Positions 14,417 to 26,584 of a stretch of DNA of 56,428 bases are shown in pieces. The stretch covers positions 1-56,428 of the forward strand of contig CAIRBL010000080.1 of assembly GCA_903876815.1 (NCBI GenBank), read 5' to 3'. The first letter of the stretch is position 1. Each line of letters starts with the position of its first letter. Position numbers and translations under genes: made by a program. The stretch comes from an uncultured bacterium (GTDB lineage Bacteria; Patescibacteriota; Patescibacteriia; UBA1558; GWA2-36-10). The notes under the pieces were generated by a model that saw nothing but the letters and a program-made list of their open reading frames with translations, made no database searches and was not told the DNA's origin.

Positions 14417-14843
14417 AATTTTTTAGTAAAGCTAAAATTTTTTCTTGTTCTTTTTCTTGACGTAAATATTCTTGCTCACTTAATTCATGATCATAGCCTA
14501 ATAAATGTAAAATACCGTGCACCGTCAATAATTGTAATTCAGCCCTAAGACTTGTCTTGTGTTCTAAGGCTTGTTTTTTTGCCTTGGCTAAACAAATAAC
14601 TATTTCTCCCAAAATTTCTGCTGAGTCTATATTAAAAGACAAAACATCTGTCACTTTATTTTTATGACGATAAACTTTATTTAAATTTTTTATTTCTGTC
14701 TCTGAAACTAAGGCTATGGAAATATTTTTTTTGAGTCTAAATTTTTTTTGAATAATTTTTTCCAAATACAACAACCAAGTAAAGTTAGCTGTACTTGACC
14801 TTTTATTCAAAACTATCAAAGGCTCTGTTTTATGTTTATTCAT
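14406..14843 (-). CDS. ybeY: rRNA maturation endoribonuclease YbeY
   Basis: HGILHLLGYDH zinc motif. ATG at 14843 overlaps the stop of the upstream gene (track start 14855 is TTG). Confidence 0.9.
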   Translation of the reverse strand: MNKHKTEPLIVLNKRSSTANFTWLLYLEKIIQKKFRLKKNISIALVSETEIKNLNKVYRHKNKVTDVLSFNIDSAEILGEIVICLAKAKKQALEHKTSLRAELQLLTVHGILHLLGYDHELSEQEYLRQEKEQEKILALLKNYAN

Positions 14844-16116
14844 TGATAAATTCAAAACTATTTAGCATCATTTGAAAAATAGTATTAAAATAACGTTCAG
14901 CTTGATCATTGACATCATATCTGATAACTATTTTATGACTAGCAGTAACAGCCACTAACCATAAATCACCATCTATTTCTTGCTTTAGAGTCGGAATTTT
15001 GCTTTTACCCAAAGTCACTGTAGTAGTATTGTCTAATTTTGGATGTAGACCCGAATCATTAGCCCAAGCACTTAAGCTAGCGTTATCTGTATTATTTACC
15101 ATTATTAAACTAAAATTATCACCTAATTCCGTGTCCGTTGAAATAGCTACTGTGTGATTAACATCAGTCAAAATATCAGCTACCCAAGCAGATGGATACA
15201 AAAAGCGATATTTAAATTCATTATTAGTAAAAATAGTCACTATACCCGCATCAGACAAAGCTCCACTGGACACACTGGGGTTATAAAGATTCAAAACTTC
15301 TGTACCGTCTTGATAACCATCATTGTCTGTATCACTATCATTAATGTTGGTACCAAATAAACCCTCTTCTTCGCGAGTCAAATTGTCTTTATCAGCGTCA
15401 GTATTGTCATTTGCTGGTGGAGGTGGCGGAGCAACCGGATTATTGTTAGCATTATTATTATTTTCTGATTCTACTTCTGCCTGATAAACTGCCCAGCCTG
15501 CCTTAGTAAATTGGTAAGTGCCAACTTTATTTTTATCTACACTACCATCAAATTGCACGGTAAACTTGAAATTTGCACCACTGCTGATGGCTGCATAGAT
15601 ATAGGCCGAGCCATCTTTTTGTAAGGGCATATTAGTCAAATACTTTGGTTGCAAATCTCCCAAATACACCGGATATTTTTGCTCAAACTGAAAATATTTA
15701 TCCAAAGCTGTTTTAAAAACATTTATATCATCCAAAATTTTCTGATCATTTTTGGCTTCGATTTGTTCAGTATTATTTTCTGTGTTATTTTCTGTATTGT
15801 TCGCTGCTGGAATATTTGTAGTGGGACTCGTCACACTGCTACTAGCCCACCATAACATAGCAGCTATCACAAAACCCAAGAACAAAACAAAAACAATACT
15901 CACAAAAATAATTTTTTGTTTAGAGCTTAGTTGTTTTTTTGGTGATTGAGGTAAAAATTTAGCTGGCATGACATGCACACTATCTTCACTCAACTCCAAA
16001 GGCTTATCTTTTCCAATTTCTTGATTAACAATAGTGTTAATCTCATTTGACATTTTTTGTGTATCACGCTCAGCATTTATATCTTGAGCATTATTTTCTT
16101 TTTGATCTGAAAACAT
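14836..16116 (-). CDS. membrane-anchored surface protein with pseudopilin (GspG)-like domain, thrombospondin-type-3-like Ca-binding repeat and unknown C-terminal domain
   Basis: TM helix IIFVSIVFVLFLGFVIAAML; N-rich linker (NTENNTENNTE); ALDKYFQFEQKYPVYLGDLQPKYL resembles a T2SS-G fold; DSDTDNDGYQDGTEV. Confidence 0.55.
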   Translation of the reverse strand: MFSDQKENNAQDINAERDTQKMSNEINTIVNQEIGKDKPLELSEDSVHVMPAKFLPQSPKKQLSSKQKIIFVSIVFVLFLGFVIAAMLWWASSSVTSPTTNIPAANNTENNTENNTEQIEAKNDQKILDDINVFKTALDKYFQFEQKYPVYLGDLQPKYLTNMPLQKDGSAYIYAAISSGANFKFTVQFDGSVDKNKVGTYQFTKAGWAVYQAEVESENNNNANNNPVAPPPPPANDNTDADKDNLTREEEGLFGTNINDSDTDNDGYQDGTEVLNLYNPSVSSGALSDAGIVTIFTNNEFKYRFLYPSAWVADILTDVNHTVAISTDTELGDNFSLIMVNNTDNASLSAWANDSGLHPKLDNTTTVTLGKSKIPTLKQEIDGDLWLVAVTASHKIVIRYDVNDQAERYFNTIFQMMLNSFEFINE

Positions 16117-16122
16117 ACTTAA

Positions 16123-24935: not shown

Positions 24936-24973
24936 TTTTTTAAAAAATTTATTATTTTTATTTTAACAAAATA

Positions 24974-26584
24974 TTAATCAGCTTCACCAAAACAATTAGC
25001 GCCAGAACACGCTGGATCATTACACACACAAGAGCTGCTAGTTGGGTCACTACATTCACAAGGATTAAAACAGTTTTGTAAACTATCCTGAATTCTTGAG
25101 CTCAAATTTGGCTGATATTCAGTCAAGGGTTCTAGCTTATCATGTAAAATAGATATTTTATCAGTAGAAAGTCCAAGCCAATAATTGATAGCTGTGCTTG
25201 GTGATTTAACAAAGTCAATATTACTAGAATTAATAGAAGAAGATAACAATGGTTTATTAAATACCACCGTAATTGCTCCAGTCAACTCTACATTTGTGTT
25301 ATTAGCCATTGAGCTGATCTTCGGTGGCGTCAAATCGATAGTATTGTTGGTAGAAAAAGACCAACTATAAGAACCGCCTGGTGTAGCATCATCATCGCCA
25401 TCCAAAATATTATCAGCCATGTCTTTGAGATTGTCAGTAACTGTGGTTAGAAATTCCTCGTTAGCTGGCAAACAATAGACATTGCCACCACAAGAATTTG
25501 TACCGCACAAATCATTGGTCAAAAACTCAACTGTTTTATATTGGTTAGAAATCAAATATTGGCCCTGCACCAAAGTACCAGCTGGATTTTGAGCAACGGT
25601 AATATTAGTAAAATCTGGTGGATTATTGTCATAAACACCAGCAGCAAAAAGCGGATTCATGCTTTCAGAAAAATTTATTTGCACAACTGTATTACGTGGA
25701 TTAATAGAAGAAGCAACCGGAATAACCGAAGTAACAGTTGGCGGAGTCAAATCCAGCTGACTACTCACCATAAAATTCCAGTCATAACCACTGGAGCCAA
25801 AAGCTAAATCACCATTTTCTTTCTTAATTTCATTACCCAAAGCCATGTTATAGTTAGTCTGTTCATTTTGGTTACCCAGATGGAAACTAGCATCGGTATC
25901 ATATGGATTTAAACCTAAAACTTTCTTGTCGGCGCTCAAAGTAGCCTTAAGCTTACTGTTATCAAAAATTTGATCATTAGTAGCATCTGTTAAAATAATA
26001 TTATCTGGATTAGCACAAAAATCAAACTCGCAATCACTGCTTGTAATCAAGTCCTCTTCTTTCATCGCTTCTTTGAAAGTAATATAAATATTGGTATTTC
26101 TTGGCACATCACTAGCATTTCTAGCTGGATAATGATTTTCTATCACTCCACCACCAATACCAACGCCACCATGATAGCCACCGCCAGCTCCACCGCCAGC
26201 TCCTGGTCCACCATTTGTTGCTCCATAAATCTGATAGATGATAAAGCGTGCTATAGCATAAGAGGCTAAAATAATAATCAAGCCAATCACAGCGTTTAAA
26301 ATAATCTTTTTGGCTTTATCTATTTTGTCAGCCGCACCCTGTGAAGTCATCCAAATCCAGCCACCATAGAGAATAATCAAAACTGCTAGAATGCCCAAAA
26401 AACCTAAAAAGATATTGACAATTTGTACAATGGTATCTTTGATGTCGCGAGTTCCTAAACCTGAGTTAGCTAAAGCACTTGTGCCCAAAACATCATTGGT
26501 TTGAGCCAAAATAGAACTTGGCAACAAAAAAATAACTGCTATAAAAATAATTAGAAAAACAGTTATTTTCTTCGATTTAAGCAT
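24974..26584 (-). CDS. surface protein with the same T4SS-pilin-like N-terminal module, three SbsA/Big_5-like Ig domains and a Cys-rich C-terminus
   Basis: N-terminal 120 aa align with those of the giant protein (GTRDI..FLGFLGI.AV.II.Y.GW.WM.SQG.ADKI.KAK...IGLIIIL.SYAIARF). DLTPPTVTSVIPVASSINPRNTVVQINFSESMNP. Tail is CECSDPTSSSCVCNDPACSGANC. Confidence 0.75.
   Translation of the reverse strand: MLKSKKITVFLIIFIAVIFLLPSSILAQTNDVLGTSALANSGLGTRDIKDTIVQIVNIFLGFLGILAVLIILYGGWIWMTSQGAADKIDKAKKIILNAVIGLIIILASYAIARFIIYQIYGATNGGPGAGGGAGGGYHGGVGIGGGVIENHYPARNASDVPRNTNIYITFKEAMKEEDLITSSDCEFDFCANPDNIILTDATNDQIFDNSKLKATLSADKKVLGLNPYDTDASFHLGNQNEQTNYNMALGNEIKKENGDLAFGSSGYDWNFMVSSQLDLTPPTVTSVIPVASSINPRNTVVQINFSESMNPLFAAGVYDNNPPDFTNITVAQNPAGTLVQGQYLISNQYKTVEFLTNDLCGTNSCGGNVYCLPANEEFLTTVTDNLKDMADNILDGDDDATPGGSYSWSFSTNNTIDLTPPKISSMANNTNVELTGAITVVFNKPLLSSSINSSNIDFVKSPSTAINYWLGLSTDKISILHDKLEPLTEYQPNLSSRIQDSLQNCFNPCECSDPTSSSCVCNDPACSGANCFGEAD

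Follow-up and report, generated by a model that had tools for sequence, protein, structure and literature searches.

A class-wide module of envelope-protein genes occupies the yqeY-ybeY slot of a conserved housekeeping gene string in Patescibacteria

Introduction

Patescibacteria account for a very large share of bacterial diversity, most of it uncultured, and are believed to live in attachment to other cells. Outside Saccharimonadia, their surface structures are poorly known. In this study, we analysed a stretch of 56,428 nucleotides (nt) from an uncultured member of this phylum (contig CAIRBL010000080.1 of GenBank assembly GCA_903876815.1; hereafter, the window), in which four consecutive genes for envelope proteins lie between the housekeeping genes yqeY and ybeY. 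We refer to these genes and their products as p536, p2654, p272 and p426, after the number of residues encoded, to p2654 and its counterparts as the giant gene, and to the four together as the module. The reference arrangement is that of Bacillus subtilis, rpsU-yqeY ... phoH-pgpH(yqfF)-ybeY-dgkA-era, with the PgpH gene preceding ybeY. The original prediction for the window had proposed that the four genes are either co-transcribed with their housekeeping neighbours or inserted into the string.

The ingredients of the locus are already known: VirB2-like pilins of the candidate phyla radiation (CPR) (PMC12102498), TSP3 repeats, surface proteins with immunoglobulin (Ig)-like domains, and the Firmicutes-type rpsU-yqeY...ybeY-dgkA neighbourhood. 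The passages on these terms in a survey of type IV secretion systems (T4SS) in Patescibacteria (PMC12102498) mention neither fusions of the pilin hairpin nor this locus. Another CPR surface structure, the Pam pili, occurs in Saccharimonadia and Microgenomatia and is assembled by donor-strand exchange with chaperone-like partners (PMC13278184).

Results

We found that the module holds its place throughout a class of Patescibacteria. In the 40 relatives searched at the level of the order, a single contig carries yqeY and ybeY, in one orientation and at a distance of 10.8-19.3 kb. All 29 order-level loci that we fetched (one of the window's genus, 16 of its family and 12 of six further families) show the arrangement hisS-rpsU-yqeY-p536-p2654-p272-p426-ybeY-(dgkA)-ftsA, in the same order and on the same strand. 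The gene hisS lies ahead of rpsU in 42 of 50 loci, and ftsA follows dgkA or ybeY in the relatives whose examined stretch extends that far. The class-level sample comprised 151 genomes from about 95 families. Outside the order, 79 class genomes have yqeY and ybeY on one contig; in 78 of them, by our own pairing of the yqeY and ybeY search rows, the two genes share their orientation and lie 6.1-24.8 kb from each other. The exception, G102 (locus L034, G102:C2:292000-299500), has a gap of 2.7 kb without the giant gene, and its order is yqeY, a p272-like gene (355 residues), a p426-like gene (416 residues) and ybeY. Profiles built from the order-level homologues recognised 20 out of 20 class-level loci from other families. 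In every one of these, p272 and p426 adjoin ybeY, and the giant gene is present in 19; p536 is a separate gene in 7 and p272 is duplicated in 5. The patchy presence expected of an island was not seen, as the module is carried by each of the order-level and class-level loci. Additional unassigned open reading frames (ORFs) occur in some relatives between the giant gene and p272, either of about 250 residues (L003, L007, L010, L013, L015 and L026) or of 843-1142 residues (L021, L022 and L024), so that the module has accessory genes specific to certain lineages.

The full-length p426 profile matches genomes of this class only. The p536 profile finds 335 loci in a species-representative collection and, among the best 80 of these 335, the informative labels are Candidatus Komeilibacteria, Falkowbacteria, Uhrbacteria, Buchananbacteria and Parcubacteria/Patescibacteria group, with one Nomurabacteria. 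The class that holds Komeili-, Falkow-, Uhr- and Buchananbacteria is known as ABY1 in GTDB. Many public records of metagenome-assembled genomes carrying p536, a gene specific to Patescibacteria (for example L052, L054, L059, L080 and L092) are titled 'uncultured Gammaproteobacteria', 'Planctomycetota' or 'Chlamydiae'; for these bins, the record labels are evidently unreliable.

The situation in other classes is different. In a phylum-wide sample, yqeY and ybeY share a contig in 60 genomes of other classes; the two genes are adjacent in 36, separated by 0.45-2.8 kb in 23 and rearranged in 1. The content of the slot was read in 20 loci from other classes. It is either empty or holds PgpH (roughly 680 residues; 7TMR-HDED, 7TM-7TMR_HD and HD domains, PF07697, PF07698 and PF01966), an HD-only protein, or a protein of 134-438 residues with a transmembrane (TM) segment and TSP3 repeats. 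The last type is tightly coupled to ybeY in several families (L136-L141, L148 and L149). Since only the TSP3 repeat aligns to p426, we do not claim these TSP3 proteins as p426 orthologues; they may represent a forerunner of the module or an independent occupation of the slot. Because other classes have yqeY beside ybeY, or only PgpH or one small gene between them, the module amounts to 11.7 kb that is extra relative to the phylum backbone. PgpH (PF07698) was absent from 21 of 21 genomes, namely that of the window and 20 relatives, in a search in which the B. subtilis control matches; the module of this lineage stands where PgpH stands in some other Patescibacteria classes. Altogether, a backbone of hisS-(HIT)-rpsU-yqeY-[slot]-ybeY-dgkA-ftsA extends across the phylum, and the module of 6-25 kb belongs to a single class.

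Some variants of this backbone were also observed. Many other lineages of the phylum have a HIT-family gene (PF01230, PF11969) in the interval from hisS to rpsU (L136:1076-1411, with equivalents across L132-L149). The window has no HIT gene at that position, where 122 nt separate hisS from rpsU. Two loci of another class, L148 (G233:C4) and L149 (G208:C2), read hisS-HIT-pilin-rpsU-TM+TSP3-ybeY-dgkA-ftsA, without yqeY; the VirB2-like pilin (PF18895) has 130-156 residues and the TM+TSP3 protein 306-330. Outside the class, too, this string is thus accompanied by genes for a pilin and a TSP3 protein.

In composition, the four genes proved indistinguishable from the rest of the genome, and no foreign signature appeared. 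Their z-scores for GC content at third codon positions (GC3) range from -0.09 to -0.47 against the other 772 ORFs of the 0.92-Mb genome, and their codon distance falls at the 4th-52nd percentile among genes of similar length. Total GC over the giant gene is 0.41-0.42 versus about 0.35, but this rise sits in codon position 2 and so reflects amino-acid content. We found no transfer RNA (tRNA) gene between 9000 and 32000, no direct repeats at the borders of the module, and no integrase in the ORF list of the window. The class-wide arrangement and the lack of a compositional, tRNA or repeat signature of mobility indicate that this is an old stable locus rather than an island.

On the minus strand, the ORFs of the window run in the order lepB, hisS, rpsU, yqeY, p536, p2654, p272, p426, ybeY, dgkA, ftsA, ftsZ and nrdR (Table 1). 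The layout given in the original prediction was borne out. Pfam families on all four flanking genes identify rpsU-yqeY and ybeY-dgkA; four consecutive ORFs have the predicted coordinates and lengths; and the ORF coordinates and the sequence itself agree with spacers of 6 to 38 nt and a last stop overlapping the ybeY ATG. The envelope nature proposed for the four proteins is likewise confirmed, by matches to T4SS_pilin, Big_5, TIG and TSP3 and by TM helices and beta-sandwich domains in AlphaFold models.

Table 1. Genes and transcription signals of the conserved string, in the direction of transcription, with the distance from each gene to the next in the window and in a survey of 50 loci of relatives
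Feature	Position	Strand	Description	To next gene, window	To next gene, relatives
hisS	27520..28857	-	ORF list; upstream flank of the conserved string		median 142 nt
Terminator-like hairpin ending the hisS unit	27485-27463	-	9-bp stem, 5 GC pairs, then ATTGACTTTT		
Promoter-like site for rpsU	27433..27461	-	TTGACT-17-CATTAT, extended TG; directly after the hisS hairpin		
rpsU	27122..27397	-	ribosomal protein S21; PF01165, E 1.7e-9		<=131 nt
yqeY	26612..27052	-	GatB/YqeY-domain protein; PF09424, E 1.4e-39	27 nt	<=50 nt in 34/37
p536	24974..26584	-	536 residues; signal peptide, VirB2-like helical hairpin, Gly-rich linker, three Big_5, Cys-rich tail	38 nt	<=92 nt
p2654	16971..24935	-	2654 residues, giant; VirB2-like anchor, then IPT/TIG, Big_5, Cys-rich repeats	29 nt	
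p272	16123..16941	-	272 residues; N-in single-pass membrane protein, four TSP3 repeats	6 nt	<=50 nt in 49/50
p426	14836..16116	-	426 residues; single-pass; pseudopilin-like domain, TSP3 unit, C-terminal PsbP/Mog1-like domain	8-nt overlap, ATGAATAA; ybeY ATG 14843 within the last p426 codons	<=35 nt always, median -1
ybeY	14406..14855, likely ATG 14843	-	endoribonuclease; PF02130, E 1.2e-34	11-nt overlap	<=39 nt
dgkA	14078..14416	-	DAGK_prokar; diacylglycerol/undecaprenol kinase family; PF01219, E 8.4e-30		about 87 nt
Promoter-like site for ftsA-ftsZ	14011..14039	-	TTGGCA-17-TATAAT; 11/12 positions match		
ftsA + ftsZ	11522..13966	-	ORF list; downstream flank of the conserved string		

Terminators and promoters were sought by consensus scans only, and the function of the promoter-like sites is predicted from these. 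The sole strong coding-strand hairpin of the terminator scan (27485-27463) sits upstream of rpsU. As originally predicted, no intergenic terminator was found between 27397 and 14078; the remaining hits are stems of 5-8 bp in coding sequence, and terminator-like stems inside coding sequence are not above the shuffled expectation (15 vs 9.8 +/- 3.4). In G005, a member of another genus, compensatory changes preserve the hisS terminator, and the promoter-like site of rpsU is identical. Moreover, the two wider junctions of the spacing survey, hisS to rpsU and dgkA to ftsA, are those where the scan places promoters. Such spacing would be expected if selection acted on one transcription unit running from rpsU through dgkA. 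Two other hairpins were noted, one in the rpsU-yqeY spacer (27069-27112; 11-bp stem, 22-nt loop, no U-run) and one ending 3 nt ahead of the rpsU start codon (27401-27426; 9-10 bp); either could have a role in the processing or regulation of the putative operon.

All four module proteins are membrane-anchored, with their bulk outside the cell. In p536, Pfam recognises T4SS_pilin (PF18895) at 30.2 bits, over the cut-off of 26.6, and three Big_5 Ig-like domains (PF13205, E 7e-19). The AlphaFold model (mean predicted local distance difference test, pLDDT, 78.7) agrees with this layout, with helices at 48-79 and 85-125 followed by beta domains; by fold, these match tandem Ig domains found in LdtMt2 and in two S-layer proteins, SbsC and Sap. 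For p2654, Pfam finds TIG (E 2.7e-21) and Big_5 (E 1.7e-16). Its T4SS_pilin match, at 18.3 bits, is below the cut-off of 26.6, and a custom hidden Markov model (HMM) of the anchor that it shares with p536 and free pilins recognises it at E 1.5e-45. The anchor-coding DNA of the two genes (24574-24775 and 26217-26418) is 77-78% identical over about 200 nt. In both proteins, the VirB2-like hairpin tethers large extracellular arrays of Ig domains, and the product of the giant gene reaches 4619 residues in one relative. Neither protein qualifies as a small pilin (about 100-140 residues, mostly hairpin), their lengths being 536 and 2654 residues, as against 112-141 residues for free pilins of the same genome. 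In some relatives (L018, L019, L023 and L025), the similarity between anchors within one genome exceeds that to orthologues, up to 82% amino-acid identity, and this suggests occasional gene conversion between the p536 and p2654 genes.

The same genome encodes free VirB2-like pilins. A tandem array of five such genes, for products of 112-309 residues, lies on contig C87 (C87:8178-10771, L131), and these pilins match the anchors of p536 and p2654 with E 1e-19 to 1e-42 in the anchor HMM. A separate T4SS locus on contig C14 (C14:14468-21880, L130) encodes PrgI, TraC-like and VirB4-like proteins, the last an ATPase, together with two further proteins that have pilin domains (317 and 400 residues). 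This locus is outside the window, and p536 and p2654 are thus not encoded beside a VirB4-type machine. The free pilins and the VirB4 locus agree with the relevant passages of the Patescibacteria T4SS survey (PMC12102498).

The two remaining proteins carry TSP3 repeats. According to its family consensus, p272 has a single TM pass and a conserved cytoplasmic N-terminus; Pfam identifies four calcium-binding-type repeats (TSP3, PF18884) at 49.3 bits, with a cut-off of 25, and the NCBIfam matches to CglD and MtsD are weak, all of them far below the family cut-offs. The p426 protein has a cytoplasmic N-terminus of about 60 residues with a conserved 'MPxKF' motif, and one TM helix at 65-93. Its TSP3 unit gives no Pfam match at E 0.01, and the residues of this unit are invariant in the alignment of homologues (D240, D242, D244 ... 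D262, D264, D266, D270, E273). In the AlphaFold model (pLDDT 80.8), residues 123-210 resemble the major pseudopilin of type II secretion, GspG/EpsG (Foldseek probability 0.99, E 0.1); neither the alignment nor the model revealed a class III signal peptide or prepilin motif. The C-terminal domain matches PsbP (2xb3; E 1.1e-5, template-modelling score TM(target) 0.52), with further Foldseek matches at probability 1.0 to other PsbP entries, Tsi3, BT_1490 and Apa, and residues 288-349 give a weak NCBIfam match to PsbP. This modelled PsbP/Mog1 likeness is a resemblance of fold only, without functional implication.

Discussion

In this study, we characterized a module of envelope genes whose position, class-wide conservation, absence from other classes, native composition and domain architectures are directly observed. 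Our results indicate that the module is, with high confidence, an ancient insertion that was fixed at the base of one class, ABY1, and retained throughout it. Taken as a whole, an ancient module, a probable operon and a joint surface structure make up what we consider the likely explanation of the locus. The original prediction of an insertion into the string therefore stands for deep time, as the slot is empty or small in other classes, and fails for a recent event, given the class-wide synteny and the native composition. The same prediction had named conservation across the lineage as a sign of an old stable locus, and this conservation extends over the whole class.

It is hardly conceivable that the module is a genomic island which recently entered the yqeY-ybeY interval of this organism, or of its near relatives, by horizontal transfer. 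It is true that large adhesin-like genes are frequently found on islands and that overall GC is somewhat higher across the giant gene. However, the rise is confined to codon position 2, GC3 and codon use are native, and the module is accompanied by no tRNA, integrase or flanking repeats. In addition, identity to the same-genus genome is lower for the module proteins (58-70%) than for HisS and FtsA (84-93%), with 70-73% for YqeY and YbeY, and the module genes are found at this site in each of the 49 relatives examined at locus level. We regard this explanation as refuted because the synteny is shared up to class level. A different alternative, which appears improbable to us, is that the module or its core was ancestral to the whole phylum, being lost or reduced in other classes and retained here, not inserted. 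In support of it, several families outside the class have a TM+TSP3 protein in the slot, tightly coupled to ybeY, and family f116 has a gene for a free VirB2-like pilin immediately ahead of rpsU. These two findings suggest that part of the module may predate the class and weigh against an insertion at its base, as does the fact that a gain in the class, as opposed to a loss elsewhere, rests on parsimony and on the Bacillus-like pgpH-ybeY state. On the other hand, no homology to p426 is detectable past the TSP3 repeat in the other-class proteins, and the giant gene, like the pseudopilin-like and PsbP-like parts, occurs in this class only. Moreover, several other classes keep pgpH-ybeY as in B. 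subtilis, or an empty slot, and the absence of PgpH from all 21 genomes of the lineage fits replacement better than retention. An ancient insertion in the class remains the reading that we prefer.

Regarding transcription, we lean towards the view that rpsU to dgkA form one unit, in which the surface genes would be co-transcribed with the housekeeping genes, because the tight spacing and the terminator and promoter upstream of rpsU are conserved. This putative unit possibly reads on into ftsA. The co-transcription put forward in the original prediction thus finds indirect support at the sequence level, from the spacing in 50 loci and from the signals before rpsU that are kept in G005. It is also possible, if rather doubtful, that the genes are neighbours and not one operon, the module having its own promoters and the adjacency reflecting compaction of a 0.9-Mb genome. 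Gene-dense CPR genomes commonly have short spacers, and a transcript of 13 kb would be long. Promoter-like hexamers also occur inside the string, for example at 16987-16958, just before p272, and internal promoters may accordingly exist, which speaks against a single unit; their count is at chance level, and the site before p272 is not conserved in G001 or G005. However, spacers of at most 50 nt or overlaps are found at nearly every junction in the 50 loci, whereas the junctions with predicted promoters (hisS to rpsU and dgkA to ftsA) are consistently wider. Furthermore, the p426 stop overlaps the ybeY start, no intergenic terminator was found in the string, and order and strand are frozen across the whole class.

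We propose that envelope genes entered the yqeY-ybeY slot of a Firmicutes-like housekeeping string in the common ancestor of the class, as a module that has remained in place since. The module encodes one or two proteins in which a VirB2-like hairpin carries an Ig cargo, one or two single-pass TSP3 proteins, and one protein of the p426 type. Driven by the rpsU promoter as one unit through dgkA, these genes would provide a core surface complex at housekeeping level. At the cell surface, the four proteins may act jointly, forming a constitutive fibre or coat that is anchored in the membrane and stabilised by calcium; we would give about even chances to the proposal that they form a joint structure. 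In such a structure, p536 and p2654 could be plain membrane anchors or pilin-like subunits entering a VirB2-type assembly, the assembly may be shared with the VirB4 system and the free VirB2-like pilins that have their genes at other sites in the genome, and the TSP3, pseudopilin-like and PsbP-like proteins would be partners of the coat or fibre. A bolder and rather speculative extension is that the module builds a class-defining surface organelle of ABY1, in which the VirB4 machine assembles free pilins together with the hairpins of p536 and of the giant protein into an Ig-decorated filament or coat, with the TSP3, pseudopilin-like and PsbP-like partners acting as a calcium-dependent base or as assembly factors. 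If this were true, the rpsU...ybeY-dgkA-ftsAZ placement would hard-wire synthesis of the organelle to the making of ribosomes and to cell division. That the module is universally retained in genomes of about 1 Mb, and that it is coupled to rpsU, ybeY and ftsAZ, suggests a core and not an accessory function.

In the literature searched, we found no description of this module in ABY1, of pilin hairpins anchoring giant proteins, or of a class-wide occupation of the yqeY-ybeY slot. The module is a candidate core surface apparatus, and its persistence in genomes that discard nearly all dispensable genes argues for essentiality there. The locus also offers a clear-cut and easily scored taxonomic marker, by which one large class can be told apart from the others of the phylum. 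From an evolutionary standpoint, it exemplifies how a slot in a deeply conserved housekeeping operon can be re-used, with envelope genes replacing PgpH. Finally, VirB2-like hairpins serving as N-terminal anchors of very large proteins bear on the use of the widespread CPR 'pilins'.

Compared with B. subtilis, the class has rpsU, yqeY, ybeY and dgkA in the same order and orientation, and some other classes of Patescibacteria keep pgpH directly before ybeY. Unlike in B. subtilis, four envelope genes stand between yqeY and ybeY in this class, without yqfA-D, phoH or pgpH, and dgkA is followed by ftsA-ftsZ instead of cdd-era. Like VirB2/TrbC pilins (PF18895, PF04956), p536 and p2654 begin with a signal peptide and a hydrophobic hairpin of two helices; known VirB2-like pilins have about 100-140 residues and are encoded in arrays or near virB4, whereas these hairpins carry 400-2500 extra extracellular residues and the genes are in a housekeeping string, with the VirB4 locus on another contig. 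The repeats of p272 and p426 follow the calcium-binding pattern DxDxDGxxDxxE of bacterial TSP3 surface proteins (PF18884) such as Myxococcus CglD and MtsD, whereas the proteins themselves are short and single-pass, not large lipoproteins, and p426 adds pseudopilin-like and PsbP-like domains. Pam pili are similar in being a CPR-specific surface structure with Ig-like domains, encoded by an operon in a housekeeping neighbourhood, in their case that of ATP synthase (PMC13278184). We considered them as an explanation of the locus and ruled them out on account of their different architecture, classes and neighbourhood: the module described here combines VirB2-like anchors with TSP3, pseudopilin-like and PsbP-like partners.

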